DNA of 64,000 nt, from positions 6,043-70,042 of the IMG/VR virus record IMGVR_UViG_2600255040_000002. One strand, written 5' to 3'. The notes beneath the pieces were generated by a model, which did not search any database, was not told where the DNA came from, and worked only from the letters and a program-made list of their open reading frames with translations. Positions 1 through 33,321 of the stretch are shown one piece after another. A program made the translations under genes and the position numbers. Position 1 is the stretch's first letter. The number at the start of each line of letters is the position of its first letter. The stretch comes from a virus. Taxonomy: Duplodnaviria; Caudoviricetes.

Positions 1-1
1 T

Positions 2-292: not shown

Positions 293-544
293 ATGAAGAA
301 CCCGGGAGAATATGTTGACATTGGGGACCCAGCCTTGCAAGTCAGAACAGACGAGGATGGAAACACCGTGGCCTCTGCAACGATACAGGCGGTTGTCCTC
401 TGGAAAGAAGATATCAAAAACTACATCATGGACGAGGTCATCAAGATGTGCAAGGAGCACGGAATTACGGACCTGTATGTGCTGAACCGGGATTTCATCC
501 TGTCAGCCGTTAAAGAGAAGATGGAAAGGGAGGCCCAACTATGA
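293..544 (+). CDS. Hypothetical phage protein
   Basis: GGAG RBS, coupled to next gene. Confidence 0.75.
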   Translation: MKNPGEYVDIGDPALQVRTDEDGNTVASATIQAVVLWKEDIKNYIMDEVIKMCKEHGITDLYVLNRDFILSAVKEKMEREAQL

Positions 545-918
545 AGCTGGAAGAAGCGATAGTCTATTTTGAGTCGTTGCTGAAACGTTTTGAAGAAATG
601 CGCGAGACCGAAACATCCTACTGGGGAAAGGTACACACTGAAACAACCATAGAGGCTATACGTACTGCCCTCGCCGCCCTCCGCCCTGTCAGCCGGGAGC
701 GGGTGGAGAAGGTGTTTCCGGGGTGTCCTTATTGCAAGCCAGATTCTGAGGGATATGTGCAAAAATTTGGGGCATACAGCATCCTGAACGGGGAATTGAA
801 AACAGGGCACTGTAAGCCACAGAAAATCGGTTTTTGCCCGCATTGTTCCCGCCCGCTGACAGACGAGGCCGTGGAGATGGTGATGAAAAGGATGGAGGTC
901 CTGAACGATGCGGATTGA
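541..918 (+). CDS. Hypothetical phage protein with two CxxC motifs
   Basis: CPYC and CPHC; ATGA overlap with upstream gene. Confidence 0.8.
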   Translation: MKLEEAIVYFESLLKRFEEMRETETSYWGKVHTETTIEAIRTALAALRPVSRERVEKVFPGCPYCKPDSEGYVQKFGAYSILNGELKTGHCKPQKIGFCPHCSRPLTDEAVEMVMKRMEVLNDAD

Positions 919-1141
919 GCGCAATCGCTATGTGGTCATGCGGAAAAACAGAACAGAGGTCTGGTGCGGTCTAGCAAAGCATTTTAGTTTTCGCCCCATA
1001 TCGGAAATAAAAGACGTTTCCGTCAAGACCTATCGTTCTGAGACGCAGGCTAGAAGCGGATGTTCTTCGTGGGATAGAGACTTTGAAGTCGTTCCGGTAA
1101 TCGAGATGATTGCGACTGAGGAGGCGCTGAAAGATGCGTAA
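908..1141 (+). CDS. Hypothetical phage protein
   Basis: GGAGG RBS, overlapping operon layout. Confidence 0.75.
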   Translation: MRIERNRYVVMRKNRTEVWCGLAKHFSFRPISEIKDVSVKTYRSETQARSGCSSWDRDFEVVPVIEMIATEEALKDA

Positions 1142-1325
1142 AGGCTTAGTTATTGTAATTGGCTTGATTGTTGGCTACGCAATAAGTTGGGCATTTACAG
1201 TCGGGATTATCAAACTCATTACAATGTGCTTTTCCATCCGGTTTTCTTTGCCTGCCGCCACTGGAATATGGCTGATTCTGTGGCTGCTGAAATTTGTTTT
1301 TCATAAATCGGAAGGGAGGCGCTGA
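1134..1325 (+). CDS. Small two-TM membrane protein
   Basis: Two hydrophobic stretches; GAGGAGG RBS. Confidence 0.75.
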   Translation: MRKGLVIVIGLIVGYAISWAFTVGIIKLITMCFSIRFSLPAATGIWLILWLLKFVFHKSEGRR

Positions 1326-1328
1326 AAG

Positions 1329-1685
1329 ATGGCAAGGCCGATTGACTGTAAGAAGTGCTTGCACGAAAAGGTGTGTGCTCTATGGACGCGTCAAGAGTCG
1401 CAGGACGCAAGCTGTTTCTGCCAAGATGGGTGCGACTATTTTGCGCCCACCCTCACCCCGTCGAACGAGTGGGTGAGCGTGGAAAATGCCATGCCGCCAG
1501 AGGATGAGACAGTGCTGTGTATCGTGAGCGGGAAGCCGAAGCCGAATATCGCGCTGGAGGACGCATATCAGCTTGGATCATGGGACAAGGATGACAGGTG
1601 GATCATCGATGAATATCTGGATTGGGAAGATGCTGATGTATCTTGGTGGATGCCCCTCCCGGAACCGCCTGGAAAGGAGGGGTGA
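1329..1685 (+). CDS. DUF551-like phage protein
   Basis: EWVSVE...WWMPLPEPP signature. Confidence 0.75.
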   Translation: MARPIDCKKCLHEKVCALWTRQESQDASCFCQDGCDYFAPTLTPSNEWVSVENAMPPEDETVLCIVSGKPKPNIALEDAYQLGSWDKDDRWIIDEYLDWEDADVSWWMPLPEPPGKEG

Positions 1686-1687
1686 GG

Positions 1688-2002
1688 ATGGACAGACAAC
1701 AGGCTGTAACGATTTTGGAGCGGAAAACCACCATCCCCGGTGATGGATACACCTGGGAGCAAATCAATGAGGCCATCGACATGGCAATCTCCGCCCTGTC
1801 CCGGCCGAACGAGCCGTTGACCATCGAGCAGCTGCGGGAGATGGGAGGACAACCGTATTGGCATGTTGGGTTACGAAAAGAAAGCACCCCGCCACATTGG
1901 AATATCCTTGATCCGTTTTATGCAAAGCATATCGAGGATTACAGATACGGCGAGAACTGGCTCGCCTACCGCCGCCCGCTGGAGGGAGAGGAGGACACCT
2001 GA
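1688..2002 (+). CDS. Hypothetical phage protein (homolog of 45771-46118)
   Basis: ATG after AAGGAGG; N-terminus nearly identical to the prophage 2 gene. Confidence 0.8.
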   Translation: MDRQQAVTILERKTTIPGDGYTWEQINEAIDMAISALSRPNEPLTIEQLREMGGQPYWHVGLRKESTPPHWNILDPFYAKHIEDYRYGENWLAYRRPLEGEEDT

Positions 2003-2238
2003 TGGACATTTCTGGGACAAATATAAAGCATATCACTATGTTTGACCGACAGTATACGCCGGAAAAGCAAGCAGAGGGGCTGGCGATCTCACAGGCCATT
2101 GTATACGGGCATTGTGATAAGTGCGGCTTCCTTTCCCAGTGTTCCACCAAAGGGGAGGCATTCCGGTTTCCTGTGTTTGCGTGGTGTATGCGTCGCAAAG
2201 CAGAAATCCTTGCAGATATGCGGAAGGAGACCACCTGA
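2002..2238 (+). CDS. Hypothetical phage protein
   Basis: TGATG coupling at both ends; CxxC. Confidence 0.75.
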   Translation: MDISGTNIKHITMFDRQYTPEKQAEGLAISQAIVYGHCDKCGFLSQCSTKGEAFRFPVFAWCMRRKAEILADMRKETT

Positions 2239-2687
2239 TGGACATTGAGAAGTTGATTGAGCGGCTGAAACATGACTACCACGGGTACAGTACGGTGGAG
2301 AACAACCCGGAGGAGACGTTTCATGATATGGTGGAGTGCTTGACCGCCCTCTCCACGCTCCAGGCCGAAAACGAGCAGCTGCGGGCCGAGCTGGAACAGG
2401 CCAGGGCAGAGATCGCCCGTCTGAAACACTATGAGGATAAGTGCCACGACTGCCCTATCGTCTGTGCTAAAACGGAAATCATCAAGGCGCACGAGGAGTT
2501 GGAAGCCATACAAGCCGAGCTGGAGCAGGTGAAGTGGGAGAAGGATGCGGCGGTAAACGATTTGCAGTGTATAAAATCCTGTGCAGTCTGCAAACATTGC
2601 GACAGTCTGCAAACGCCAATCCCTGAAATATGCAAGAAATGCTCTCACGGGGAGAACTGGGATTGGCGCGGCCCGAAGGAGGACTGA
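2238..2687 (+). CDS. Hypothetical coiled-coil/Cys-rich phage protein
   Basis: ATG after AAGGAG; STLQAENEQLRAELE linker. Confidence 0.75.
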   Translation: MDIEKLIERLKHDYHGYSTVENNPEETFHDMVECLTALSTLQAENEQLRAELEQARAEIARLKHYEDKCHDCPIVCAKTEIIKAHEELEAIQAELEQVKWEKDAAVNDLQCIKSCAVCKHCDSLQTPIPEICKKCSHGENWDWRGPKED

Positions 2688-2688
2688 C

Positions 2689-2940
2689 ATGAAGCAGTTT
2701 TCCATTATGGATGGAGATATGTTCTTCCAGCGTTTGGAGCCAAACGAGAAGTATGTGCTAGCTGGTCGGGCAATTCAGACCGATTTGCACAGTTACAGCG
2801 AGTACACGCCGGTTTTTGGGCATGACCCGAAATGGTTTGATTCCAGAACCGCAACCGCGTATTTGGCTGGTCTTGTTGAGCATCTGAGGTGGGATGGAGA
2901 CAGATACCACGCCTATGCGCTGATCTGTAAGGAGGAATGA
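2689..2940 (+). CDS. Hypothetical phage protein
   Basis: ATG after GGAGG. Confidence 0.7.
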   Translation: MKQFSIMDGDMFFQRLEPNEKYVLAGRAIQTDLHSYSEYTPVFGHDPKWFDSRTATAYLAGLVEHLRWDGDRYHAYALICKEE

Positions 2941-3449
2941 GTATGGAACGGATGACCAAGAAAGAACAGCTTGCCGGTCGTACTGTAAATTACATCGGAG
3001 AAGATGATTGCTTTGATGTATGGAGTGTACCAAAAAAGTTTATGGGAAACGCTGTTGACCGCCTCGCCGCCTACGAGGACACGGGGGTGGAGCCGGAGGA
3101 GATTGCTCGTATACTGGATGCTTATGGGCGCGGAATGACTCTGCGAACAGAGAACGCTCAAAGATTGGAAATCGTAAAGGGCATCCAAACTGACCGCCTC
3201 CGCGAACTGGCCCAGGCGGACAGGGAGGGGCGGTGCGTGGTGCTGCCTGCGACACCAGACCAAATTATTTATCGGTGGCGCAAAGGTGATGATTGCCCGA
3301 GCGTAAGCCGTCTTGATGGCGTACAAATTAACGCAGATGGAGAGATTACATATCCGATTTGGAACGGTTATTTGATACCTGAAGATTTCGGAAAAACCGT
3401 TTTCCTGACCCGTGAGGAAGCCGAACTACGGAGGGAGCAGGATGGTTGA
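2937..3449 (+). CDS. Hypothetical phage protein (RLAAYEDTG family)
   Basis: Motif common in Firmicute phage early genes. Confidence 0.8.
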   Translation: MSMERMTKKEQLAGRTVNYIGEDDCFDVWSVPKKFMGNAVDRLAAYEDTGVEPEEIARILDAYGRGMTLRTENAQRLEIVKGIQTDRLRELAQADREGRCVVLPATPDQIIYRWRKGDDCPSVSRLDGVQINADGEITYPIWNGYLIPEDFGKTVFLTREEAELRREQDG

Positions 3450-3825
3450 TTGGAAAGTCATAAAAAGACTTGGGATATGTTTCCTTGGGTGGTTTATCAA
3501 TAATCAGGGTGAGTTTATTGCCCACCAAAAGGCGAACGTATATTTTAATATCAGCACTTGTGATAGTGAGATGGATGTAAAGTGCAAGGTGTTGGAGTGG
3601 TTTTCCCGCCCAGCTTGTAAGTCCACGCCGTTCCGCCGTGCAGTGGACAATACGGCCCTTCATATTTTCTTCCTGAATGGTATAAATCAATACCTTGACA
3701 CTAGGTTCAACGTGGAGGATATGCGGGAGATTTACACTTATCTCGGGAACGCTTGCAACCATCAAAAAACGATCCAATTTATAGAGAGCGGCTATGATAT
3801 GGCCGTATTGGAGGAAGAGGAATGA
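3442..3825 (+). CDS. Hypothetical phage protein
   Basis: ATG after GGAG, coupled ends. Confidence 0.75.
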   Translation: MVDWKVIKRLGICFLGWFINNQGEFIAHQKANVYFNISTCDSEMDVKCKVLEWFSRPACKSTPFRRAVDNTALHIFFLNGINQYLDTRFNVEDMREIYTYLGNACNHQKTIQFIESGYDMAVLEEEE

Positions 3826-4136
3826 AGGAGTACATCACAAAGGCGAAAGTCATTGAAGCGATTGAGAAAGCTGTTGCTCCAGAAATTACTACCATAGGAG
3901 ACTATGAAACTATTGGGGTATTCACAAGAGAATCTATTAAACGGATTGTATCCAACCTCACCGCCGCCGACGTTGCGGAGGTGCGGCACGGGGAGTGGAG
4001 ATATTACCACAAGCAAAACAAAGCGGTTTGCACGAATTGCAGCTTTGAGCGTGACCTTGATACCGATTTTGGGAGAGCTGTTGCTTGCCCCAACTGCGGC
4101 GCTCGCATGGACGAGGAGGAGGCAAATGAAAGATAG
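3822..4136 (+). CDS. Hypothetical phage protein with C-terminal zinc ribbon
   Basis: ADVAEVRHGEW...CTNC...CPNCGARMD. Confidence 0.8.
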   Translation: MKEYITKAKVIEAIEKAVAPEITTIGDYETIGVFTRESIKRIVSNLTAADVAEVRHGEWRYYHKQNKAVCTNCSFERDLDTDFGRAVACPNCGARMDEEEANER

Positions 4137-4368
4137 ACTTGGAAATTTACTCAACATTGGCGATAGATGTGTTTGTTATAACACGATGAGGACTGGCAGC
4201 AGCACTACGAGACTTGTGCAGTACGAGGCTATAATCATTGGTTTTACAAAAAAGAGCATCCGGGTTAAATGTGTGGACTGTTGTTATTCTCATCGAGTCG
4301 GTGACGAATTGCTTTGCGGCGCAGATAACATTTTCAAGCTAAGAGGTGACGAGCATGAGGCTGGGTGA
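4126..4368 (+). CDS. Hypothetical phage protein
   Basis: ATG after GGAGGAGG. Confidence 0.7.
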   Translation: MKDRLGNLLNIGDRCVCYNTMRTGSSTTRLVQYEAIIIGFTKKSIRVKCVDCCYSHRVGDELLCGADNIFKLRGDEHEAG

Positions 4369-4603
4369 TTTAGGCCGTATCGCGCAAGATGGACAGGTCG
4401 TAATTTTGCTGGAGAATGCACCTACCATCGACGCCGTGCCTGTGGTCAGGTGTAAGGAATGTATCTACTACAAAATCTGCGATGAATGGGAAACTGGCAA
4501 GCGGATGCTATGCGAAATCCATCATCACTCATACTTAGACCACGACGGAGACGAGCATTTTTGCTCTTTGGGCCAGCGAAAGGAGGCTGGCCATGAGCAG
4601 TGA
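4355..4603 (+). CDS. Hypothetical phage protein (PTIDAVPVVRCKEC family)
   Basis: Conserved Cys motif. Confidence 0.75.
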   Translation: MRLGDLGRIAQDGQVVILLENAPTIDAVPVVRCKECIYYKICDEWETGKRMLCEIHHHSYLDHDGDEHFCSLGQRKEAGHEQ

Positions 4604-4679
4604 ACTATGGCTTGGCTATGTGGCCGGTGCGCTGACCTTCGGCTGGCTGCTGCCGTGGATTGGGAGGAAAATCAAATGA
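4593..4679 (+). CDS. 28-aa hydrophobic peptide
   Basis: AAGGAGG RBS; MSSELWLGYVAGALTFGWLLPWIGRKIK; overlaps both neighbours. Confidence 0.55.
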   Translation: MSSELWLGYVAGALTFGWLLPWIGRKIK

Positions 4680-5365
4680 AGTTTCGGAGTAAGACGGGGG
4701 AAGTGCTTGAAATTCTGTCTAAATGGGACTTTTTCTATGGGCAACGGGCCGGGAGAGAGTTTTGGGCAGATAAGCCAAGAGACGTGCAAGACCAAGACAT
4801 AGCCGATTTTAGCCGGGATATGGAGACGATAACAAGCTGGGTCCAAGAAGCCGCCCGCCTGATGGGCTATGAGGTGGTGGAGGATGATGAACCACGCACT
4901 TGTTTTAACTGCATTGGGTGTGAAATTGAGAAGGACTTTGACCCGCAGGAAGGGTGCAAAAATTGGGTGAAAAGGAAGGAGACCCACATGGACAAGCCGT
5001 TGAAGGACTGGACACTGGGGGAACTGAAAGAGTGGTGCTATCAATACGGAAAGGCCCACACAAATAATCCGTGCGAACAGAAATGCCCTATCTATCAGAG
5101 AGGAATTTGCTGTCGTGAATGGGTACATGAGTGGGACTTGGAAGGAAAGCCCCGCTGGACGGAGCAGGAGGTGGAGATGGCGAAGGCTATCAAGGAGATT
5201 TTCCCGGATGCTTATAAACTCGCAAGGAACCTCTCAGCCATTGCGATTTATGGTGTAGAAGATGACATCTCATTTTACCTTGCTACCATTCAAGCTGAAC
5301 GTTTCCCCTCTCTCCGCCCCGGCGAAACTGTCACCCTTGACGAGATCATCGGAGGTGCCCAATGA
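4676..5365 (+). CDS. Mosaic hypothetical phage protein
   Basis: ATG after GGAGG; several short Cys-rich modules. Confidence 0.75.
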   Translation: MKFRSKTGEVLEILSKWDFFYGQRAGREFWADKPRDVQDQDIADFSRDMETITSWVQEAARLMGYEVVEDDEPRTCFNCIGCEIEKDFDPQEGCKNWVKRKETHMDKPLKDWTLGELKEWCYQYGKAHTNNPCEQKCPIYQRGICCREWVHEWDLEGKPRWTEQEVEMAKAIKEIFPDAYKLARNLSAIAIYGVEDDISFYLATIQAERFPSLRPGETVTLDEIIGGAQ

Positions 5366-5763
5366 GAGAAATCCTTTTCAAAGCCAAGCGGCTGGATAAT
5401 GGAGAGTGGGTGGAGGGGTGGTACTGTGAGTATCCATTTAGACGATGGCCGCTTAAACCGACAATTATTCCTGCCCAATTGGCTATTGATGGAACCTTTG
5501 AATTTGTCGATGTTGACCCCTCCACGGTCGGCCAGTACACCGGCCTGAAAGATAAGAATGGGAAGCGGATTTTTGAGGGAGACATCATCCGCTGGACGGA
5601 CTGGAAGGGCGAACAAAAAGAAGCCCCTGTATGCTATGACCCAGAGTGGAATAGATTTTGCGTTTGGCTGAATGGCGCTGAAAGTATGGGCGTAAATAAG
5701 CATCTTTCAACTGGCGGAATTGAGATCATCAACTCCATCCACGACGGGGAGGGAGGACAATGA
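5362..5763 (+). CDS. YopX family protein
   Basis: MREILFKAKRLDNGEWVEG...VGQYTGLKDKNGKRIFEGDII. Confidence 0.9.
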   Translation: MREILFKAKRLDNGEWVEGWYCEYPFRRWPLKPTIIPAQLAIDGTFEFVDVDPSTVGQYTGLKDKNGKRIFEGDIIRWTDWKGEQKEAPVCYDPEWNRFCVWLNGAESMGVNKHLSTGGIEIINSIHDGEGGQ

Positions 5764-6062
5764 AGTGCGAGAAATGCGGAAAGGAAATCGGGAATCTGTT
5801 GGTTGATACTTTCCTCCGAGATGGAAGCGACACTGACATTGAACAGCCTATCGTTGAATGTGAGCACAATGCCGCCTACATCGAAACAACACAGAATTGG
5901 ACAGGCTATGATCTGTCAGAAGAAGAAATGTTCGAAACGATAACCTGCCCGCACTGCAAGCAGTTCCCATTCAAAAGTACAGAGATACAGGTCTATGATG
6001 TGGTGCGGGTTGTCTGCTTCAAGACGGAAGAGAGAGGACGGCATGAGGGAGGTAAACAATGA
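5760..6062 (+). CDS. Hypothetical zinc-binding phage protein
   Basis: CEKC, CPHC. Confidence 0.75.
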   Translation: MKCEKCGKEIGNLLVDTFLRDGSDTDIEQPIVECEHNAAYIETTQNWTGYDLSEEEMFETITCPHCKQFPFKSTEIQVYDVVRVVCFKTEERGRHEGGKQ

Positions 6063-6235
6063 CTGAAACCGAAGTGATCTCCATTGATCGTCACGGCCAG
6101 CGGAAGGAGTATCCGTCGATCAAATCTGCCGCAGAGGATGTTGGTGTTCGCCCCTGCCGGATTTCTACCGCCTGCGTTACCGCCCACCGCTGCGCGGGAC
6201 GGTATTGGATCAAGAAGGAGGATATGGATGGGTGA
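6059..6235 (+). CDS. Small NUMOD1/IENR1-like HTH protein
   Basis: YPSIKSAAEDVG...ISTACVT..RCAGRYW; homologous to the C-terminus of 44967-45296. Confidence 0.65.
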   Translation: MTETEVISIDRHGQRKEYPSIKSAAEDVGVRPCRISTACVTAHRCAGRYWIKKEDMDG

Positions 6236-6458
6236 GTTCCCGGAAAGGCTGAGAAAGTTGCGGGAGTCCATGCGGCCGGTGCGGAGCATGACGGTTACAT
6301 CACAGCTGATGGGGTTGCATCCGGATATGTTGAGAAGATATGAGCGGGGAGAGGTAGAGCCGTCTATGGATGCCCTATATAAAATCGCAGATTATTATGG
6401 GGTCAGTACAGACTATCTGCTTGGGAGAACCAACTTCCCGTTTGTACATAGAGTATAA
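6228..6458 (+). CDS. XRE-family HTH regulator (candidate late regulator)
   Basis: RLRKLRE...RRYERGEVEPSMDALYKIADYYGVSTDYLLGR; last gene before the packaging leader. Confidence 0.85.
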   Translation: MGEFPERLRKLRESMRPVRSMTVTSQLMGLHPDMLRRYERGEVEPSMDALYKIADYYGVSTDYLLGRTNFPFVHRV

Positions 6459-6490
6459 TCTTTCATCTTCACAAAAAACCCGGACAATGG

Positions 6491-6533
6491 TTCCCACAAA
6501 AGTGGGAATTAAAATTGAAGACTATGCGACAAT
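6491..6533 (+). promoter_or_regulatory. Candidate late promoter: palindrome TTCCCAC-N4-GTGGGAA plus extended -10-like TGCGACAAT
   Basis: Perfect 7-bp inverted repeat near the -35 position, directly after the XRE gene. Confidence 0.45.
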
Positions 6534-6534
6534 G

Positions 6535-7100
6535 GAGCATGAGGGAGTAACTTCCCCATGCTCCTTCTTTTTCCTCCCCTTTCGGGCTGTGTACCAACCA
6601 CGGCCCAAAGGACAACCCACTCCCCCGGCAGGAGTATCTAGTAAGCAGATATTAAACGGAAAGGAGAGCCTTTCTCGTATGTTTCCTGCCGGGGGACTCC
6701 CTTCATATATGCCGCAGCACGATGCAGCCCACAAATCAGGGCCGGAGGGTCGCGGCCTCCATGCGGCAGAGCCGACAGTCATAGTGTCGGGCAAAAAAGC
6801 GGTGGTAGCTATGACCTGCCCCGAAATGTATTGAGAGCTTACCGAGGGTTTAGATGCTCACAGGATGGTGACCGAATCCCAATTCCATCCACAACCGCAC
6901 TATCCTGCTGAAAACTACCGTAGGACAGTGAAACTCCGAATGGAATGTAGCTGACTGATTGATGGTGTGACAATCTAAGCGGGAAGCGCACATACGCCGC
7001 CCCGCAGTTGCACGAGACGGGGGCGGGAAGCTCAATATTGAGGGGTTACGCATGGCGGGGTAATCTCCCGCCGCCTCTCCTGACATATACAGAGGAGGGG
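6535..7100 (+). ncRNA. Highly structured non-coding region with serial hairpins and tRNA-like cloverleaves
   Basis: Stems at 6535-6564, 6584-6606, 6621-6696, 6710-6768, 6799-6899, 7054-7072; no convincing ORF. Confidence 0.55.
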
Positions 7101-7105
7101 CATAC

Positions 7106-7600
7106 ATGGAAAATGAAATTTGGAAAGATGTTGTTGGTCTGGAGGGGTTTTATAAAGTTTCAAATCTTGGAAGAGTGCTTAATGCCAATACAAAGAAAAT
7201 AAGAAAACTCGTAAAAGACAAAGACGGGTATTACCAACTTGTCCTTATGAAAAATGGGAAACGAGTTTATCCGAAAGTTCACAGGCTTGTCGCGGAAGCG
7301 TTTCTCAAAAATCCTGATTTACTTCCTGTCGTTAACCATAAAAATGAAAACAAAACAGATAACAGACCTGAAAATTTGGAATGGTGTACGACAGAATATA
7401 ATAATTCATATGGGAGCAGAGTCAGGGGCGTTTTGCAGTTCAATTTAGACGGTTCACTGGTAAAAAAATATCAATCTATTAGCAGTGCAGCTAAGGAAAA
7501 CAAAATGGACATCAAGACGCTCTACAGATGGTGCCAAAAAGTAGGTGGAATTGGGTGTGGATATAAATGGTATTTTGAAGACGAGATGATAGGTGGATGA
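7106..7600 (+). CDS. NUMOD4-HNH-NUMOD1 homing endonuclease (I-HmuI-like)
   Basis: EIWKDVVGLEGFYKVSNLGRV; VHRLVAEAFL; VNHKNENKTDN..ENLEW; AT-rich relative to flanks. Confidence 0.9.
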   Translation: MENEIWKDVVGLEGFYKVSNLGRVLNANTKKIRKLVKDKDGYYQLVLMKNGKRVYPKVHRLVAEAFLKNPDLLPVVNHKNENKTDNRPENLEWCTTEYNNSYGSRVRGVLQFNLDGSLVKKYQSISSAAKENKMDIKTLYRWCQKVGGIGCGYKWYFEDEMIGG

Positions 7601-7606
7601 AAAGCT

Positions 7607-8029
7607 ATGGCTGCACGGCTGACAGACAGGCAAAAGAAGAAAATCGTGGCTGATTATCTGGAATGCCAGTCGGTCAATCTCGCCGCCAAGAAAAACGGGG
7701 TTTCATGGGATAGCGCAAAGAAAGCCCTGGAAGAAGCCGGAGAAATTGAGAAAAAGCTAGAGCAAAAAAAAGAGGAGAACACCGCCGACATCCTAGCTTA
7801 CATGGAAAGCCAGAAGGGCCTTGTGTGTGAAATCATCGGTAAAGGGTTGGCTGCGCTCAACGACCCGGAGAAGCTGGCAGAGGCTACGCCCGCGCAAATC
7901 ACCACCGCGCTTGGGACGCTGATCGACAAATTCACGGCCTTTGGCGGCGGCCCAGGCGATACAGCCAAGGACGACGGATTGAGCCAGAGCCTGAGAGAAC
8001 TTGCGGAGGGGTTGGAAAGCGATGATTGA
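7607..8029 (+). CDS. terS: Terminase small subunit
   Basis: N-terminal HTH-like segment, position before TerL. Confidence 0.7.
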   Translation: MAARLTDRQKKKIVADYLECQSVNLAAKKNGVSWDSAKKALEEAGEIEKKLEQKKEENTADILAYMESQKGLVCEIIGKGLAALNDPEKLAEATPAQITTALGTLIDKFTAFGGGPGDTAKDDGLSQSLRELAEGLESDD

Positions 8030-8105
8030 TTTAATCAGGATTGGTTCGTGTGTTGCGCTTGGTGTGTGTATACGGCTATTGATTGAGAGGAACCACCGTG
8101 GTTAG
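8022..8105 (+). CDS. 27-aa hydrophobic peptide inserted between terS and terL
   Basis: GGAGGGG RBS, ATG overlapping terS end; MIDLIRIGSCVALGVCIRLLIERNHRG. Confidence 0.4.
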   Translation: MIDLIRIGSCVALGVCIRLLIERNHRG

Positions 8106-9300
8106 CCCGCAGCAAAAGAAAATCCTGGCTTTCCCCTACTCAAAGTACGACGCCCTCATCTGCGACGGCGCGGTCCGCTCCGGCAAGACCTCCATCATGA
8201 TGTGGGCCTTTGTGGACTGGGCAATGCGGGAGTTTTCCGGCCAGCGGTTCGGCATCTGCGGCAAGACGGTGGACAGCGCAAGCAAGAACATCATCGTTCC
8301 GTTTACCGCCATGACGCTGGCGAAAGAAAAGTACACTATCCGCTGGCGAAGGTCGGAGAAGATTCTGGAGGTCCGACGGGGAGCTGTAACGAACTGGTTT
8401 GAGGTCTTCGGCGGCAAGGATGAATCCAGTGCTTCCCTTATTCAGGGTCGGACGCTGGCCGGTGTGCTGCTGGACGAGGTGGCGCTCATGCCGCGGTCGT
8501 TCGTGGAACAAGCCATAGCCCGGTGCAGCGTAGACGGGGCAAAGCTGTGGTTCTCCTGCAACCCGGACTCCCCGCAGCACTGGTTTTACCTGGAGTGGAT
8601 ACTGAAGCACAAGGAGCGCAACGCCCTGTACCTACACTTTACCATGCGGGACAATCCTGGTCTGAGCGAAAAGACACTGGAACGGTATGAGAACATGTAT
8701 ACCGGCGTGTTTTATGATCGGTTTATCCGTGGCCTTTGGGTGGTGGCGGAGGGGCTTGTCTACCCACACTTTGGCGAGAGCTGTATCACGGACGAAGAAC
8801 CGCCGGCGGGCCGGTATTATATCTCCGTGGACTACGGAACGCTCAACCCCTTTTCCGCCGGTCTGTGGTGCGTGACAACGCAAGGGGCTGTCCGCATCAA
8901 TGAGTATTATTACAGCGGGCGTGGGACGCAGGAGCAACTGACCGACGAGGAGTATTACCAGGCGATACGGGAACTGGCCGACGGTTATAACGTGGACTAT
9001 GTGGTCATTGACCCGTCGGCGGCGTCTTTTATCACTACAGTATTCCGACACAATGAGTTCCATGTGGTCAAAGCGAACAATGACGTAATGGACGGGATAC
9101 GGCGGACCTCTGTCTATCTCAAAAGCGGGAAACTCAAAATACACCGCCGGTGCAAGGACGCTATCCGAGAATTTGGACTATACCGCTGGGACGAGGACTC
9201 AACGGTGGACAAGGTCATCAAGGCGGATGACCACGCCATGGACGATATACGATATTTCGCGAATACTATTCTGGTTCGGCATTTCCCGGTAATGAGGTGA
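8098..9300 (+). CDS. terL: Terminase large subunit (PBSX family)
   Basis: Walker A DGAVRSGKT, Walker B VLLDEV, C-terminal DHAMDDIRY. Confidence 0.95.
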   Translation: MVSPQQKKILAFPYSKYDALICDGAVRSGKTSIMMWAFVDWAMREFSGQRFGICGKTVDSASKNIIVPFTAMTLAKEKYTIRWRRSEKILEVRRGAVTNWFEVFGGKDESSASLIQGRTLAGVLLDEVALMPRSFVEQAIARCSVDGAKLWFSCNPDSPQHWFYLEWILKHKERNALYLHFTMRDNPGLSEKTLERYENMYTGVFYDRFIRGLWVVAEGLVYPHFGESCITDEEPPAGRYYISVDYGTLNPFSAGLWCVTTQGAVRINEYYYSGRGTQEQLTDEEYYQAIRELADGYNVDYVVIDPSAASFITTVFRHNEFHVVKANNDVMDGIRRTSVYLKSGKLKIHRRCKDAIREFGLYRWDEDSTVDKVIKADDHAMDDIRYFANTILVRHFPVMR

Positions 9301-27807: not shown

Positions 27808-28056
27808 GTGGCAACTGCCCGTGTCAGATTACCAGATAGCCTGTATGGCCTTATGCGCTCCGAGATGGAGACGGCCATCCGGGAGGCCAATCTTGGGAAC
27901 GACGACACGGACATTGCCAGGCGCTACCTGATCGACCAGGTCCCGCAAATCGACATTGCAGCGGAGTTCGGCTGGGAGCGGTCTACCATCTCTCACCGAG
28001 TCAAACGGATTCTCCACAAAGTTGAAAGCACAGCTCAAAAACTACATTTCACATAA
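27808..28056 (+). CDS. Small HTH DNA-binding protein
   Basis: QIDIAAEFGWERSTISHRVKRI. Confidence 0.8.
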   Translation: MATARVRLPDSLYGLMRSEMETAIREANLGNDDTDIARRYLIDQVPQIDIAAEFGWERSTISHRVKRILHKVESTAQKLHFT

Positions 28057-28067
28057 TTTCACCTAAA

Positions 28068-28103
28068 CCCCGCTTGGGCACCACCCAGGCGGGGCCTTTT
28101 TTT
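28068..28103 (+). terminator. Intrinsic terminator ending the lysis cassette
   Basis: CCCCGCTTGGG/CCCAGGCGGGG plus T7. Confidence 0.75.
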
Positions 28104-28114
28104 GCGAAAATATC

Positions 28115-28176
28115 ATCAGGAGGACGTAAGGGACAAGGGCTGGTACACGTCGCCGCCCTCCTTGCGGCCTCCTGAT
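28115..28176 (+). promoter_or_regulatory. Structured leader of the accessory operon
   Basis: ATCAGGAGG/CCTCCTGAT stem with nested CGTAAGG/CCTTGCG and AGGGC/GCCCT helices. Confidence 0.55.
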
Positions 28177-28201
28177 TTCACTGATAAGGACGTGTTTTAA
28201 G

Positions 28202-28372
28202 TTGATTCTGAATGGTTCAGAACTGGTGGCCCGGTTGGTGGCCTGCGGCTTCACGGAGTCCAGCGCGTGGGACATCTGCATGAAATATGCCACTGACGGA
28301 AATTACTCCGGCCTGGAAGGATACATCCACCAGCAGGAGCTTTTGTATGACGACCGAAAGCAATATGTTTGA
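28202..28372 (+). CDS. 56-aa hypothetical protein, accessory operon gene 1
   Basis: TTG start after AAGGA; MILNGSELVARLVACGF; overlaps the next ATG. Confidence 0.55.
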   Translation: MILNGSELVARLVACGFTESSAWDICMKYATDGNYSGLEGYIHQQELLYDDRKQYV

Positions 28373-28727
28373 GTTTTACAATCCGAATCCCTACGAGAAA
28401 AATGTGGGGGATTGTACCGTCCGGGCCATCTCGAAGGCGCTGGAGCAGGACTGGTACAGGACATATCTTGGCCTCTGCATTGAGGGCGCTGTGAGAGGCG
28501 ATATGCCAAGCGCAAACGCCACATGGGGCGCTTACCTCCGGCGGCATGGCTTTCGGCGGGACATGGCACCCGAGGACATGACCGTGGCGGAGTTTGCGAT
28601 GGGGCATCCAAACGGGACTTACATTTTGGCCCTGTCCGGCCATGTGGTATGCCTGCAGGATGGTGTGATCTACGATACGTGGCACAGCGAGAACGAGACC
28701 GTACTTTACTTCTGGCAGAAAGGATGA
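28365..28727 (+). CDS. Putative papain-like cysteine peptidase, accessory operon gene 2
   Basis: GDCTVRA...GHVV...YDTW, a Cys-His-Asp order. Confidence 0.6.
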   Translation: MFEFYNPNPYEKNVGDCTVRAISKALEQDWYRTYLGLCIEGAVRGDMPSANATWGAYLRRHGFRRDMAPEDMTVAEFAMGHPNGTYILALSGHVVCLQDGVIYDTWHSENETVLYFWQKG

Positions 28728-28733
28728 CGTGAG

Positions 28734-29141
28734 ATGCCGAACTATCCCTATTACTATCAGCCGTACCAACCGTATCAGCCGCCTATGGCGGACCAGCTGA
28801 CGCAGCTGCGGCAGTCCTATCAACCCATGCAGCAGCCGCAGCAAGCCCCGGCATCTCCGTCTATTGTGTGGGTGCAGAGCGAGATGGAGGCGGCTAATTA
28901 TCTAGTCGCTCCAAACTCCGCCGTTACGTTATGGGACAGCAACGCTCCAGTGGTCTATCTCAAACAGGCGGACGCAAGCGGCAAGCCCAGCATGAAGATA
29001 TATGACCTTGTAGAGCGCAATCAGCGGACTGCACAGGCCCCGCAGGCTCCGGCGGTAGAGTATGCGCCTCTGTCCCGTTTAGAGGCGTTGGAGGCTCGCC
29101 TGGATGCGCTGGCGGCAAAAGATAAGGAGGATGCGGAATGA
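28734..29141 (+). CDS. Q/P/Y-rich protein, accessory operon gene 3
   Basis: Low-complexity N-terminus, globular core, coiled-coil end. Confidence 0.8.
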   Translation: MPNYPYYYQPYQPYQPPMADQLTQLRQSYQPMQQPQQAPASPSIVWVQSEMEAANYLVAPNSAVTLWDSNAPVVYLKQADASGKPSMKIYDLVERNQRTAQAPQAPAVEYAPLSRLEALEARLDALAAKDKEDAE

Positions 29142-29359
29142 ATCCCTTTTTTCAGGCGATGGGCGGCAACAGACAGCCCAACATGATGCAGCAGTTTCAG
29201 CAGTTCATGAATCAAATGAAAGGCAAGGACCCTAACGCCATGATACAAGAGATGGTATCCTCTGGACGCATTTCACAAGATCAGCTTAACCAAGTCCAAA
29301 AGCAGGCCCAGCAGATGCAGGGCATGTTTGAGGGAATGCGGGGGATGTTTGGGAAGTGA
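29138..29359 (+). CDS. Q/M-rich small protein, accessory operon gene 4
   Basis: AAGGAGG RBS, ATGA coupling. Confidence 0.8.
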   Translation: MNPFFQAMGGNRQPNMMQQFQQFMNQMKGKDPNAMIQEMVSSGRISQDQLNQVQKQAQQMQGMFEGMRGMFGK

Positions 29360-29504
29360 AGAAGTGAACTTCACTTTCCGCAGAATGTGAAGTGAATTTG
29401 CAAAGTGTACTTACCATTTCCAAACCATTTATTAAACCATTTCAAACCATTTAATCAAAATCCCGGCCGGGTTTTGAAAATAAATCTACAAAGGAGATAA
29501 CACA

Positions 29505-30245
29505 ATGAGTCTTTCTTCTGACGGCGCTGTGATGACCATGCCCGTGACTCCTGCCTATCAGGGCGGAAACGGCGGTTTCGGCGGCTGGGGCGGCGATTGG
29601 TCCAGCTGGATCATTTTGTTCCTTATCTGGGGCATCTTTGGCTGGGGCAATGGCGGATATGGCGGCTTCGGTGGCGGCGGTGGGGTCAACAACCCCGGCC
29701 TCCAGGGCCTTGCTACCCGCTCTGACATCAACGAGGGCTTCGCCCTGAACGGCCTCCAGAACGGCCAGACCTCCATCCGGGATGCCGTGAGCAACGGCTT
29801 CCATGGCGTGGATACCGCTGTGTGCAACCTGGGCTATCAGACGCAGGCGGGCTTTAACGCCCTCGGCGCCCAGCTGGCGCAGTGCTGCTGCGATACTCAG
29901 CGGAGCATTGACGGTGTCCGGTACGACATGGCTACTCAGGCTTGCGATACCCGCAACACCATCCAGTCCAGCACCCGCGACATCATCGACAACGCCAATG
30001 CCAACAGCCGCGCGATCCTGGACTTCCTGACCCAGGACAAGATCGCTACTCTGACGGCTGAAAACCAGAGCCTGAAGTTCCAGGCTTCTCAGGCGGCTCA
30101 GAACGCTTTCTTCACCGCTAATCAGGAGGCCCAGACCGCTGAACTGATTCGCCGCATCAACCCCATGCCGGTCCCGGCCTATCAGGTGCCTAATCCTTAT
30201 GCCGGATGTGGGTGCAATCCCTGCGGCTGCGGCTGCGGCTGCTAA
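29505..30245 (+). CDS. Gly-rich/TM/coiled-coil protein with Cys-rich tail, accessory operon gene 5
   Basis: GGFGGWGG-WIILFLIWGIFGWG, QCCCD, terminal CGCNPCGCGCGC. Confidence 0.85.
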   Translation: MSLSSDGAVMTMPVTPAYQGGNGGFGGWGGDWSSWIILFLIWGIFGWGNGGYGGFGGGGGVNNPGLQGLATRSDINEGFALNGLQNGQTSIRDAVSNGFHGVDTAVCNLGYQTQAGFNALGAQLAQCCCDTQRSIDGVRYDMATQACDTRNTIQSSTRDIIDNANANSRAILDFLTQDKIATLTAENQSLKFQASQAAQNAFFTANQEAQTAELIRRINPMPVPAYQVPNPYAGCGCNPCGCGCGC

Positions 30246-30357
30246 AACCCAATACATCAACTTGTAAGAAAGGCTTACATGTTCGGCCCCGTGCCGATTT
30301 TGAACCATGCGGCGGGGGCAATAGCCTCCGCCGACTTTTTTGAAAGGAATGAAGTTT

Positions 30358-30780
30358 ATGGCTGAATTTACTGGAGTATTTGTCCAGCAGGTGGCCGCTA
30401 ATCAGAATGTGATCTTTACAGAGACGCCTGTCAGCGGGTCCAACTGTGTTGTGCATAGAGATGGCTCCGGCATTGTTACCCTGCGGGGAATGACGAATCA
30501 GTGCCGTGCCCGCTATAAGGTGGTTTTCGGAAGCAACATCGCCATTCCAACTGGCGGCGCGGTAGGCCCTATCTCCGTGGCAATTGCCGTGGAGGGAGAG
30601 GCGCTGGGCAGTGCTACCGCTATCGTGACCCCTGCTGCGGTGGACGAGTTTTTCAACGTGTTTGCTGCGGCCTTTATTGAGGTCTCCCGTGGCTGCTGCG
30701 TGACCGTGGCAATCAAAAATACTAGCACGGAAACGATTGAGGTAGAAAACGCTAACCTGATTATTGAGCGTGTGGCTTGA
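30358..30780 (+). CDS. Beta-sandwich (BclA-C/C1q-like by inference) protein, accessory operon gene 6
   Basis: All-beta pattern, GRYKV-like strand, ENANLIIERVA end. Confidence 0.75.
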   Translation: MAEFTGVFVQQVAANQNVIFTETPVSGSNCVVHRDGSGIVTLRGMTNQCRARYKVVFGSNIAIPTGGAVGPISVAIAVEGEALGSATAIVTPAAVDEFFNVFAAAFIEVSRGCCVTVAIKNTSTETIEVENANLIIERVA

Positions 30781-30794
30781 AAGGAGAGTCAAGA

Positions 30795-31193
30795 ATGTAT
30801 ATGCATGAACTGAAAGAAAAGCTCTGCGAAGAGTTGGAGGAGATCGCCCGCAAGCCGGAGATGTCTGCCGGGGACCTGGAGGCCGCCCACAAGCTGACCG
30901 ATACTATCAAGAACATCGACAAGATCGAGATGCTGGAAGAGGACGATGGGTACAGCCGGGCCGGGAACTGGGAGGCCGATATGCGCGGCACTTATGCCCG
31001 CGGCTCCAGCTACCGTGGCCGGAAGCGGGATTCCATGGGACGTTATAGCCGGGATGGGCGCATGGGTGGATACAGCCGCCACGACTCCAAAGAGGCTATG
31101 ATGGAGCAGGCTCAGGAGATGATGGATAACGCTACTACTGAGAGGGAGCGCGACGCCATTCGCCGCTTTATGTCCGAACTGGGTCGGGATTGA
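30795..31193 (+). CDS. Helical protein with GRYSR repeats, accessory operon gene 7
   Basis: AAGGAG RBS; SRGRKRDSMGRYSRD. Confidence 0.8.
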   Translation: MYMHELKEKLCEELEEIARKPEMSAGDLEAAHKLTDTIKNIDKIEMLEEDDGYSRAGNWEADMRGTYARGSSYRGRKRDSMGRYSRDGRMGGYSRHDSKEAMMEQAQEMMDNATTERERDAIRRFMSELGRD

Positions 31194-31208
31194 TAGGGGG
31201 TGCCCCCT

Positions 31209-31550
31209 ATGCTAGACCCCAAAGAGATCGACATTGAGATTGCTCGTCTGGAGTACGGAGAGAGCAGCTATCCCGCATACGCTAAATTAGCAACCTTGTA
31301 CACCATCAAGAACCAGATGAAGAAGCAAGAACCGGAAATGCAAAGTCGTACCTATGAGCAAGCCTATTCTGCGGCTCCGGCTGAAATACCTGTAGAGGTC
31401 GGGAGATACGGAGACAGCGAATTTCTCCGCGAGGTTGAAGGGAGAAACGAGGAGCAGGTATGGGGCATTATGGATGACTTGATGGATACGCTCCAGGTTG
31501 CTAATCCCCGTGTGTATAACGGGGTAATGCGAAAAATACGGTCCCTATAA
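31209..31550 (+). CDS. Hypothetical protein, accessory operon gene 8
   Basis: ATG after AGGGGG; followed by a terminator. Confidence 0.8.
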   Translation: MLDPKEIDIEIARLEYGESSYPAYAKLATLYTIKNQMKKQEPEMQSRTYEQAYSAAPAEIPVEVGRYGDSEFLREVEGRNEEQVWGIMDDLMDTLQVANPRVYNGVMRKIRSL

Positions 31551-31584
31551 AAATTTCCGCCCTCAGAAATGGGGGCGGATTTCA
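31551..31584 (+). terminator. Hairpin ending the accessory operon
   Basis: TCCGCC/GGCGGA stem flanked by A/T runs. Confidence 0.6.
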
Positions 31585-31739: not shown

Positions 31740-31784
31740 TGGTGACCCGTCGGGGATTCGAACCCCGGACCCACTGCTTAAAAG
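31740..31784 (-). pseudogene. 3' half of tRNA-Lys(UUU), att core at the prophage junction
   Basis: Minus strand CTTTTAAGCAGTGGGTCCGGGGTTCGAATCCCCGACGGGTCACCA: anticodon loop, T arm, CCA; no 5' half. Confidence 0.9.
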
Positions 31785-31896
31785 ATAGTCTTGTCAATAA
31801 CTGGGGATAACTGAAACCGTCTATCCGTTGCGCCGCAAGAGATAGAACATTGGTAGTTTTTCAAAGTTATTTTCAGTTACTACCACGGTTACAACC

Positions 31897-33009
31897 TTAT
31901 TTAAGCTTCTGAATCTCGGATTTCAGCCGCTGGATGTCATCTTGGATGTACACATCGGAGGTCACGGCGAAATCCGTATGACCCATAGTGCGTTTGATCG
32001 CGTCGTTATCCACGCCTGCAGTTTTTGCTCGGGTTGCGAATGTGTAGCGGGTGCAATGGGGATGGAGCTGCCGGCCTTCCCTGGTGATCCCCAGACGCTG
32101 GAGAGTGTTCTTCCAGTCCCGTCGGGCAAAGTTGTTCCGCACCAGATTCCCGGTGTATCCGGACAGCAGCAGGGGGCCGGTAGCCCTGGCTGCAAAATAC
32201 TCTACATAGGGCCGGATCTTTGGGTGGATCACCACCACTCGGCCGCGGCCGGCAGCTGTCTTTTCGCCGCCGTACATGACATCCAGATCAAGGTCCACTT
32301 GGTCCCTGCGCTTTTGGAGCAGCTCATTGATCCGGTAGCCGGTATAGATCAGGATCAGGATAATCATGGAGGTTTCATCCCCGACGTCCGCGTCGGCACG
32401 GAGACGGAGGATCTCGGCCTCCGTGAAGGTATCCCGCTGCACCGGCTCCTGCCGGGGCAGGACCAGAAAGTCCGCATAGTTGCGGTCCAGGATGTCCTTG
32501 CGCATGGCATATTGGCAGAGCTGGCTGTATAGCGTCTGGATTTTTTTGACTGTGGAGCGGCTGCGGCCTTTCGCCACATCAGCATCAACGATCTTCTGGA
32601 CATCCTCCGTCCGTAGTGTGCGCATTTTTCGGGACGCCAGAGGCTCCAGCTTGGACCAGGCCAGATCGTATGCTAGACAAGCGTCCTCCTTCAGCCGGGG
32701 ATAGTGCTGGGCTTTCCAAAGTGTGAAAATCTCCTGAAGGGTCAGGTCAATGGCATCGCCGATAGGCTTACCTGCCAGCTTTTCGAGGGCTTCCTGGGCG
32801 GCCGTTTTCGTGGCATAACGGCCCAAAATCTTCCCGCCCTTTGCCATGACCCAGGGGCGTGTCCGGCGCTTGTCTGTGAGTTTGTAGACACTGCCGGAGC
32901 CATTTGGGCGCTTTCTGGGCCGTGGCTCCAGCCGGTGGATCACTCGGCCACAATAACAGCAGATATTTGAGTCGTCCGGGATCTCCCTGCGGCATTTTGG
33001 ACAGAGCAT
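31897..33009 (-). CDS. int: Tyrosine integrase with N-terminal zinc ribbon
   Basis: YTGYRINEL, HCTRYTFAT, MGHTDFAVTSDVY; ATG after AGGAGG; adjacent to att. Confidence 0.95.
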   Translation of the reverse strand: MLCPKCRREIPDDSNICCYCGRVIHRLEPRPRKRPNGSGSVYKLTDKRRTRPWVMAKGGKILGRYATKTAAQEALEKLAGKPIGDAIDLTLQEIFTLWKAQHYPRLKEDACLAYDLAWSKLEPLASRKMRTLRTEDVQKIVDADVAKGRSRSTVKKIQTLYSQLCQYAMRKDILDRNYADFLVLPRQEPVQRDTFTEAEILRLRADADVGDETSMIILILIYTGYRINELLQKRRDQVDLDLDVMYGGEKTAAGRGRVVVIHPKIRPYVEYFAARATGPLLLSGYTGNLVRNNFARRDWKNTLQRLGITREGRQLHPHCTRYTFATRAKTAGVDNDAIKRTMGHTDFAVTSDVYIQDDIQRLKSEIQKLK

Positions 33010-33321
33010 AGAGAAACCTCCTAATAGAGATAAAGCCGCTCCTACCGGAGCGGCTCTTCTTTTTACCTTGCCGCCAAGGCTACGAGGGCGCACTTGGACT
33101 GCGCAGGTTGTCGGACGCCGGGCCACCGCGGGACTCTTGTGGCATTTTAAGGCCGTTTGAGAAGAATGTAAAATAACCACTAGATGTTGCGGTGGATACA
33201 GTTGCACAACTTGGCGAAATATGGTAAGATATACCCAGGCGTTGCGATATACGGTAGGCGGTTGGCTCCTCCATCCCAGGAGGGGACTTCTTGCCCCCTC
33301 CGGAGAGAGGGGGTGGTGCTT

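Follow-up and report, generated by a model that had tools for sequence, protein, structure and literature searches.

What do the eight small genes make that lie between the lysis genes and the attachment site (att) of a phage? The question is raised by positions 28,115 to 31,584 of a 64,000-nucleotide stretch of viral DNA (Duplodnaviria; Caudoviricetes; positions 6,043 to 70,042 of IMG/VR record IMGVR_UViG_2600255040_000002), hereafter referred to as the window. A preliminary description of this block had proposed a protease-matured, self-assembling structure and had likened it to spore coat and exosporium proteins. Comparison across genomes indicated that the block is one 'type 1' copy of a cassette that is mobile, regulates itself and is present in thousands of gut phages. 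As to its product, we tentatively favour, at a confidence short of probable, a rod-and-knob assembly that is matured by a peptidase, sits on the host membrane and acts late in infection.

The window includes eight co-directional open reading frames (ORFs) on the + strand at 28202-31550, here named g1 to g8, which are tightly packed across 28.1-31.6 kb and bounded by two terminators. Upstream of them are a holin-like gene, an Amidase_2 endolysin gene and a helix-turn-helix (HTH) gene at 27808-28056 (+), of which the 82-residue product resembles KorA (Pfam KORA, 1e-5) and sigma-70 region 4 (Sigma70_r4, 0.013). Downstream, a terminal hairpin is followed by a tRNA 3' remnant and then by the integrase gene at 31897-33207, both on the - strand. 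With all the ORFs, the terminators, the tRNA remnant and the integrase located, an eight-gene operon after the lysis terminator and before att was confirmed, with the amendment that the HTH gene is part of the unit, which makes nine genes rather than eight. Six of the eight cassette proteins matched PHROG families, all of them function-unknown, and searches of Pfam, NCBIfam and PADLOC gave no meaningful match for any of the eight.

We collected 57 loci carrying g5 from species-representative genomes (denoted below by L numbers), and then performed tblastn with all the window proteins. The order and strand of g2-g3-(g4)-g5-g6-g7-(g8) were kept in about 30 of the 57, which are diverse prophage loci of Clostridia, with g5 identity ranging from 35 to 92%, and the same block was found between endolysin and integrase in Dulem virus 33 (L001). 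Across the loci, g2 and g6 were gained and lost together. Profile searches combined with synteny indicated that the genes co-occur as a block, far beyond chance; the expectation of a recurrent gut-phage block without a characterised counterpart was borne out by these loci and by the family searches. A second version, type 2 (L005, L006, L022, L023, L028, L040 and others), keeps g1, g3, g4 and g5 without g2. In place of g6 and g7, this version encodes a DUF7841 protein and a different Cys-rich beta protein, for which hhalign detected no relation to g6.

The site of insertion was found to vary. The cassette follows a holin or endolysin gene in the window and in L001, L002, L005, L014, L018, L025 and L045, and a phosphoesterase gene in L019 and L046; in L016 and L021 it follows a minor capsid gene, within the head module and away from att. 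In L005, L016, L021 and L023 it lies directly beside whole tRNA or tmRNA genes. These varied contexts indicate that the cassette is a mobile block and no fixed part of one phage lineage. Its presence or absence also varies among otherwise related phages. A third variant, in which g2 lies downstream of g5 and the knob is more BclA-like, was noted on L031, a 557-kb scaffold labelled as a metagenome-assembled genome of Prevotella sp.; since the genome so labelled carries Spo0A and SpoIVA, either this assignment or the binning is probably in error.

The hallmark of the cassette is g5 (29505-30245, +; 246 residues; phrog_16490, 1.6e-105). Alignment A1 revealed an acidic N-terminal tail, a Gly-flanked hydrophobic anchor, a helix of about 150 residues, an invariant CCC, a Pro-rich linker and a Cys-rich tail, CGCNPCGCGCGC. 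The acidic tail is about 28 residues long and contains 131 D/E against 26 K/R in 43 sequences, and the stretch ASQxAQNAFITANQEAQTAELIRRL is near-invariant. The anchor, the CCC and the tail had all been recognised in the preliminary description and were retained, but the long heptad region described there was not: the hydrophobic moment over positions 70-220 peaked at 3.65 residues, with a power of 79.9 versus 7.4 at 3.5. From this periodicity the helix is predicted to be a hendecad (11-residue) rod of about 22 nm, and no heptad coiled coil. The g5 family consists of at least 8000 clusters at 90% identity and of 3380 clusters at 50% identity (E<=1e-3), nearly all with members of 200-300 residues. 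It was present in 8 of 399 sampled Clostridia species genomes, a number too small for a contingency test against sporulation genes. The best PDB profile matches of g5 were segments of the coronavirus spike HR1 (E 0.03-0.04), which are non-significant and probably compositional; in the ESM Atlas, g5 and g3 gave only their own unnamed viral clusters.

The gene g2 (28365-28727, +; 120 residues; phrog_3754, 1.5e-38) begins at a conserved start that overlaps the g1 stop, within a longer ORF that begins at 28287. Its AlphaFold2 (AF2) model was of high confidence (predicted local distance difference test, pLDDT, 94.9). In the structural-neighbour search (VIA) the top 30 were all papain-fold peptidases (Z 5-7.2), the closest being Josephin and the C39 double-glycine peptidases (Z 6.8-7.2 over 100-107 residues). 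The motifs GDCTVRA, GHVVC and YDTW were recognised, and Asp-Cys, His and Asp were invariant in the 28 sequences of alignment A3 (Cys22, His98 and Asp109 in the numbering of its first row, window 28350-28727). The putative Cys peptidase of the preliminary description is thus, as judged from the model, a minimal cysteine peptidase of clan CA (papain fold). It is free-standing, with no transporter gene in the cassette. Neither Peptidase C39 (PF03412) nor any other Pfam family matched g2 at E<=1, save a spurious GNAT hit, and just two longer forms of g2 were found among 5.8 billion proteins, with no clue from domain fusion. Profile searches of PDB with g2, g6 and the type-2 Cys-rich beta protein gave nothing significant.

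A candidate substrate of this peptidase is g5. The g5 N-termini of the types LSxxDIAAVTGG/N or TMPVxP accompany g2 and g6 in about 25 of 27 loci, versus 2 of about 13 for the GYALG type, as counted by hand; in type-2 cassettes the g5 N-terminus is of the DFATGYALGQDS type. In LSxxDIAAVTGG, residues at -4, -7 and -12 ahead of Gly-Gly are hydrophobic and that at -8 is acidic, as in double-glycine leaders. By eye, N-termini of type A, for instance YSLSDIATVTGG, fit this -12/-8/-7/-4/GG pattern, and they co-occur with g2. The claim of a protease-matured structure gained some support from this resemblance of the g2-associated N-termini to double-glycine leaders. No model of a bacteriocin or leader family matched the cassette proteins.

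The third protein of the proposed assembly is g6 (30358-30780, +; 140 residues; phrog_20016, 1.6e-72), which was modelled by AF2 as a stand-alone jelly roll of TNF/C1q type (pLDDT 90.7) and which carries an invariant Cys-Cys pair. The best PDB matches by Foldseek were ExsF, ExsFA/BxpB and the C-terminal domains of BclA and F-BclA (E 1e-7; template modelling (TM) score 0.70-0.78). With TM scores of 0.75-0.78 to ExsF and BxpB, the comparison of this beta-sandwich protein with BclA held at the level of fold, at a sequence identity of 9-16%. No match of g6 to BclA_C (PF18573) was obtained in Pfam or NCBIfam, and the exosporium leader TIGR03720 matched none of the cassette proteins. Stand-alone folds like that of g6 are common in gut phages (BFVD); fused forms were almost absent, and these gave neither a stalk nor a domain-fusion clue.

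The remaining proteins are small and mostly of low complexity. The Tyr/Gln/Pro-rich N-terminus of g3 (28734-29141, +; 135 residues; phrog_21718, 5e-56) is followed by a conserved core of about 50 residues, WVxGExxAKSYxVAPNxTVxLxD...YxKSAD, and by a C-terminal helix (alignment A4, 29 sequences); g3 was found in type-1 cassettes, in type-2 cassettes and in phage CPD1. The Gln/Met-rich, helical g4 (29138-29359, +; 73 residues; phrog_22984, 1.5e-38) was detected by tblastn in 16 loci and also in CPD1. In g7 (30795-31193, +; 132 residues; phrog_28802, 1.6e-14) the GRYSR-type repeats noted earlier are indeed present: an Arg/Gly/Tyr/Ser array of variable repeats, RDSMGRYSR, lies between conserved N-terminal helices, HKLTDTIKNIDKIEMLEE, and a conserved C-terminal helix (A10, 21 sequences). 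The acidic, helical g1 (28202-28372, +; 56 residues) shows 79% identity to its counterpart in L002 and 30% to that in L005. The least conserved member is the helical g8 (31200-31550, +; 116 residues), with tblastn matches at the same position in 10 loci (26-42% identity) and no family match in Pfam or PHROG. No signal peptide was recognised when the translations of the partner proteins were read, which fits assembly on the cytoplasmic side.

The signals that surround these genes are in keeping with a self-contained unit. Terminator-like hairpins were found at 28068-28094, 30310-30333 and 31556-31579, the regional total being 17 against 7.9 expected. The first (+; 11-bp stem, T7) is strong and is predicted to insulate the cassette from the lysis genes. 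Beyond its T-tract is a -10-like box, TATCAT (28109-28114, +), which lacks a -35 element, and 5 nt past this box starts an RNA of the family RAGATH-31 (Rfam RF03101; 28119-28172, +), matched over its full length (model positions 1-54 of 54) at 80.0 bits against a gathering score of 71.8. The structured leader that had been claimed for the operon is accordingly RAGATH-31. Behind the HTH genes of L002 and L005 the same RNA scored 81.7 and 60 bits, respectively, so that in three loci it stands as the cassette 5' leader after a sigma-r4-like gene and a terminator. RAGATH reportedly stands for RNAs associated with genes associated with twister and hammerhead ribozymes; the window and 11 loci yielded neither of these two ribozymes, and our literature search turned up nothing on either RAGATH-31 or DUF7841. 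A member of a second RAGATH family, RAGATH-21, was observed near the cassette of a Faecalimonas prophage (L017 9279-9347; 75.7 bits, cut-off 70.3), about 1.4 kb 3' of it. A DUF3800-VIII RNA just below its cut-off (40.0 versus 40.2 bits) was noted at L023 1069-1132, in a type-2 cassette prophage beside a tmRNA gene.

HTH homologues were located upstream of the cassette in L001, L002, L005 and L038, and 71-residue Sigma70_r4-like genes directly 5' of it in L014, L018, L025 and L027. The arrangement of HTH gene and then terminator was shared by L001, L005, L014, L018, L025 and L027. For L014, L018, L025 and L027 the order was a sigma-r4-like gene, a strong terminator, a TACAAT/TATAAT-like box and the ribosome-binding site of the first gene; the boxes at the same place as TATCAT are reported for L014, L025 and L027. 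A scan for sigma-70 promoters gave no convincing promoter for the cassette. From this arrangement, the sigma-region-4-like HTH protein is likely to be the cassette regulator, and the promoter may be an activator-dependent one without a -35 element, from which RAGATH-31 would be transcribed as the 5' leader.

Further punctuation was found on both sides of g5. The hairpin previously called an internal attenuator is terminator-like (30310-30333), but it proved to be part of a larger RNA: it is the third stem of a conserved three-hairpin RNA of about 80 nt in the g5-g6 gap (30262-30341, +; P1 30262-30280, P2 30284-30296, P3 30310-30333 with a T-tract). In alignment A6 (23 loci), 94% of the cells were paired and compensatory changes were observed in 13 of 14 pairs; the score of 0.58 was reached by none of 500 shuffles, and slid controls gave at most 0.22. 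No match to this RNA was found in Rfam. P3 with its T-tract is, from its layout, a predicted intrinsic terminator. Just 5' of the g5 ribosome-binding site is a short hairpin, TCAAAATCC-CGGCC-GGGTTTTGA, followed by an ATAAAT box (29455-29477, +), and a hairpin with an ATAAAT-like box is present at this place in most loci. Compensatory changes were detected at five of its five predicted pairs (21 sequences), with a folding energy that is unremarkable (median minimum-free-energy z -0.88) and gives weak support. Readings of the ATAAAT box by eye as a sigma-K or sigma-E promoter were dropped, as there was no matching -35. The hairpins partition the unit into g1-g4, g5 and g6-g8, so that g5 could be expressed on its own scale; such punctuation would be typical where one product is needed at a level unlike that of its neighbours. 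The end hairpin of the earlier claim was located at 31556-31579 (+), with a 10-bp stem and a weak T tail.

The g4-g5 gap contains other elements. A 16-nt perfect palindrome, GAAGTGAACTTCACTT, is at 29361-29376, and four ACCATTT repeats with 10-12 nt spacing are at 29413-29452 (+). Only the closest relative, L002, shares the palindrome and the repeats, the latter as three exact copies with a fourth degenerate; they may be a protein-binding array. In the type-2 loci L005, L023, L028, L038, L040, L049 and L056, the element CTTTTCAGTTTTGCGGGxCTTGAxAAAAACCGC was noted about 60-110 nt 5' of g5; its GCGG/CCGC stem encloses a TTGACA-like loop, and a hairpin with a AGCGTACGG loop comes next. The element has no Rfam match and is possibly a two-hairpin leader or a promoter. 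Two distant versions of the cassette, those of Dulem virus 33 (L001 9076-9627) and Clostridium phage CPD1 (L061 4185-4835), share the site within this gap at which an HNH-type endonuclease gene has been inserted, and an int-alpA RNA match of 46 bits is beside the former. The hairpin/ATAAAT region before g5 may be a homing target.

The range of g5 extends beyond prophages of Clostridia. By tblastn, g5 was detected in four cultured Clostridium perfringens phages and in several Crassvirales genomes, in which the homologues carry the annotation "spike protein/glycoprotein". The C. perfringens carriers are plaque-isolated phages with a version of the cassette. In CPD1, g3-, g4-, g5-, Cys-beta- and g7-like genes are in order, with the HNH endonuclease gene in the g4-g5 gap. 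In the crAss-like phage cr53_1 (NC_055889; L060) the order is holin, LysB/FtsL-like gene, DUF7841 protein (E 2e-42) and g5 homologue, the last aligned by hhalign from the anchor through the GCGCGC end (99.8%, E 1e-28). In-frame TAG codons were found in the holin gene, the LysB-like gene, the g5 homologue, the two genes after g5 and the structural genes next to them; they are absent from the DUF7841 gene. Over positions 1-8826 of cr53_1, nearly all genes of the lysis/structural block, including that for a reverse transcriptase of group-II-intron type, carry 1 to 9 TAG each. TAG recoding is a mark of late genes in crAss-like phages, and the hosts of Crassvirales are non-sporulating Bacteroidota. 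No integrase was found in the region of cr53_1 examined, and BLASTP between crAss gp65 and the type-2 protein was not significant. Taken together, the crAss-like copies, the C. perfringens copies and the insertions in head modules suggest that the core function of the cassette serves the phage itself.

On these grounds we propose the following mode of action. The HTH protein and the terminator-insulated promoter with its RAGATH-31 leader would drive the cassette. The g5 protein would be held in the cytoplasmic membrane via its Gly-flanked hydrophobic segment and would bear the helical rod of about 22 nm, built on an 11-residue repeat and ending in a cysteine-rich tip. Cytoplasmic g2 may cut the acidic, double-glycine-leader-like N-terminus off g5, and the g6 trimer, with its TNF fold, may then dock on g5 as ExsF/BxpB docks the cleaved N-terminus of BclA; the co-occurrence of g2 and g6, the g5 N-terminal types and the double-glycine pattern together argue for such BclA-on-BxpB-like maturation and docking. 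Sticky low-complexity adaptors would be provided by g3 (rich in Tyr, Gln and Pro), g4 (Gln and Met) and g7 (Arg, Gly, Tyr and Ser), and the cysteines of g5 (the CCC and the tail) and of g6 (the CC) could lock the assembly. The adjacency to lysis genes, both in siphophages of Clostridia and in the distant Crassvirales, suggests that the assembly acts at the envelope as the cycle draws to a close; this late lytic role would be in lysis, egress or the handling of the surface of the dying cell, and not in spore remodelling. The evidence described above shows the genes and their synteny, the folds of g2 and g6, the catalytic residues, the RNA elements and the occurrence in crAss-like and C. perfringens phages; from it we infer the topology, the cleavage, the docking, the timing in this phage and the biological role.

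Several observations weigh against this proposal. The positive charges that flank the membrane segment of g5 average 0.6 K/R on the N side versus 0.9 on the C side, which together with the acidic N-tail makes its topology ambiguous. The window g5 has an N-terminus of the 'B' type that fits the double-glycine pattern poorly. The link between the g5 N-terminal type and g2 has exceptions in L024 and L050, and it is confounded by shared descent. In crAss-like phages, g5 and DUF7841 were the only cassette proteins detected, and g6 was not found there. The link to lysis is not universal, as the copies after minor capsid (L016, L021) and phosphoesterase (L019, L046) genes indicate. Finally, the strong upstream terminator, the own regulator and the att-side place would also fit an independently expressed moron.

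Such a moron would be expressed from the prophage and would shield the lysogen as a membrane device for superinfection exclusion or anti-phage defence, with g5 blocking DNA entry or receptors. Besides the insulation by a terminator, the own regulator and the classic slot between lysis genes and att, its movement between unrelated phages and the inclusion of a membrane protein and a protease are in keeping with this role. No PADLOC model matches any of the proteins, however, and partners of low-complexity or structural type do not resemble known defence systems. The strong conservation of g5, across about 3,400 clusters, likewise sets it apart from fast-evolving exclusion genes, and the crAss-like g5 belongs to a TAG-recoded lysis/structural block with no integrase in the region examined; on balance we consider the moron unlikely. 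The spore interpretation would make the cassette lysogenic-conversion cargo, synthesised by the mother cell and deposited on the forespore, by which the coat or exosporium is added to or remodelled. It draws on the closeness of the g6 fold to exosporium ExsF, BxpB and BclA, on Cys-rich proteins that, like mother-cell coat proteins, lack signal peptides in the translations, on the att-side place with its own promoter and terminators, and on the GerE-like size of the HTH regulator. In genomes of the hosts of g6-bearing loci, Spo0A was found in 5 of 5 and SpoIVA in 8 of 10, but most gut Clostridia have both, and this census is non-discriminating. As a general explanation the spore role was not supported, since g5 and the DUF7841 gene stand beside holin and structural genes in the TAG-recoded block of a Crassvirales phage, plaque-isolated C. 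perfringens phages have a cassette version, L016 and L021 carry theirs within the head module, and neither BclA_C, TIGR03720 nor any coat family was matched. We conclude that this interpretation is probably wrong, and as an account of the window block it is very unlikely.

Two other readings place the proteins in the virion or in the membrane as toxins, and we attach little credence to the first. The g5 rod and the g6 knob would then decorate the capsid or tail, or g5 would serve as a pilot protein that is ejected and inserts into a membrane. TNF/C1q knobs are known as fibre tips of phages and giant viruses, the g5 homologue of cr53_1 is beside structural genes, the cassette of L016 follows a minor capsid gene, and the g5 profile is weakly like the helical repeats of coronavirus spike (E 0.03), the crAss homologue being annotated in the same sense. 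The spike match is, however, the non-significant one noted above; the hydrophobic anchor, the terminator-insulated place outside the virion module in most loci, and the presence or absence of the cassette among otherwise related phages also argue against a virion component. In the toxin reading, g5 is a protease-activated, membrane-active protein like a bacteriocin or a holin, from which g2 removes the acidic leader so that a glycine-zipper inserts and times lysis or kills neighbours. The C39-like fold of g2, the fit of type-A N-termini (hydrophobic -4/-7/-12, acidic -8, GG), the Gly-rich hydrophobic segment and the adjoining holin and endolysin genes are all as this would require. It leaves the 150-residue rod and the Cys tail unexplained, however, and the cassette has no ABC exporter or immunity gene, g2 is missing from the type-2 and crAss versions, and no bacteriocin or leader family was matched; its chance of being right seems slight. 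Returning to the envelope assembly, a bolder form of it would be an undescribed, phage-built membrane structure: a Cys-locked hendecad rod, matured by a dedicated mini-peptidase and capped by a TNF-like trimer, in a condensate-like matrix of Tyr- and Arg-rich low-complexity proteins, controlled by a dedicated sigma-r4-like factor and two RNAs (RAGATH-31 and the three-hairpin RNA as an attenuator), with a general late function (egress, or masking of debris or receptors) in phages of both Clostridia and Bacteroidota. We regard this wider form as rather doubtful.

No characterised system combines the parts of the cassette. The nearest parallel is ExsF/ExsFA/BxpB with BclA in the exosporium nap of the Bacillus cereus group (PDB 9h3d, 7r1m, 8d02, 1wck), in which a stand-alone TNF/C1q jelly roll of about 140 residues, like g6, holds as a trimer the proteolytically trimmed N-terminal leader of the fibrous protein in its clefts (PMC12357932). 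In the cassette, g6 likewise has as neighbours the genes for a fibrous protein (g5) and for a peptidase (g2). The differences are the low identity of g6 (9-16%) with no match to the exosporium families, the lack of a collagen-like stalk, a partner rod that is alpha-helical and membrane-anchored, and a location in phages, with the core (g5) also in phages of non-sporulating hosts. With the C39 peptidases (ComA, LahT150, PCAT1) and Josephin of clan CA, g2 shares the fold and the invariant order Cys...His...Asp, and g5, with its Gly-Gly-like leader end, is a candidate substrate; g2 is, in contrast, just 120 residues long, unfused to an ABC exporter and without a Pfam Peptidase_C39 match at E 1. 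Commonly occurring arrangements also give Z values near 7, and g2 is at most a putative member of C39 itself.

The other likenesses are of outline. Like the spanins (lambda Rz/Rz1), g5 has an N-terminal anchor, a long helix, a Pro-rich stretch, conserved cysteines and holin/endolysin neighbours, but the hosts are monoderm Clostridia, the cassette has no lipobox protein, no sequence relation exists, and cr53_1 has a separate LysB/FtsL-like candidate. Class I fusion proteins, represented by the coronavirus spike HR1, resemble g5 in outline, with the non-significant profile match mentioned above. Phage morons share with the cassette the bounding terminators, what may be its own promoter region, and the place between lysis genes and att; in contrast to them, an order of seven to nine genes is kept here across very distant phages, and the core is present also in a crAss-like phage.

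Beyond the terminal hairpin, the tRNA 3' remnant (31743-31806, -) was recognised by the Rfam tRNA model at 22.3 bits, under the Rfam cut-off, and ARAGORN called no tRNA at this site. The record, a 70-kb IMG/VR contig, contains two related prophages in tandem, as indicated by the repeats 1638-1854/45721-45937 and 25270-25441/62177-62348, which are 87-88% identical and about 37-44 kb apart. Because the tRNA remnant is a single copy within the record, it is probably the att junction between the two prophages, and the integrase gene at 31897-33207 is placed at this junction too. No copy of g5 was found in the second prophage within the record.

New in this analysis are the identity of the RAGATH-31 leader, the covarying three-hairpin RNA, the g5 hendecad, the link between g2, g6 and the g5 N-terminus, and the TAG-recoded context in crAss-like phage. 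For the cassette proteins, searches of libraries and literature assigned no function, and the sole domain name met was DUF7841, that of the type-2 and crAss partner. RAGATH-31, an orphan RNA family, gains a genetic address as the 5' leader of the cassette, and the g5-g6 gap provides a new covarying RNA motif. For the annotation of gut prophages, a BclA/ExsF-like fold is no default indication of spore cargo. Since cultivable phages that carry the cassette exist, its role is directly testable. A conserved, self-regulated multi-gene module of such spread is likely to represent a general, previously undescribed step in the biology of phages of the anaerobic gut.

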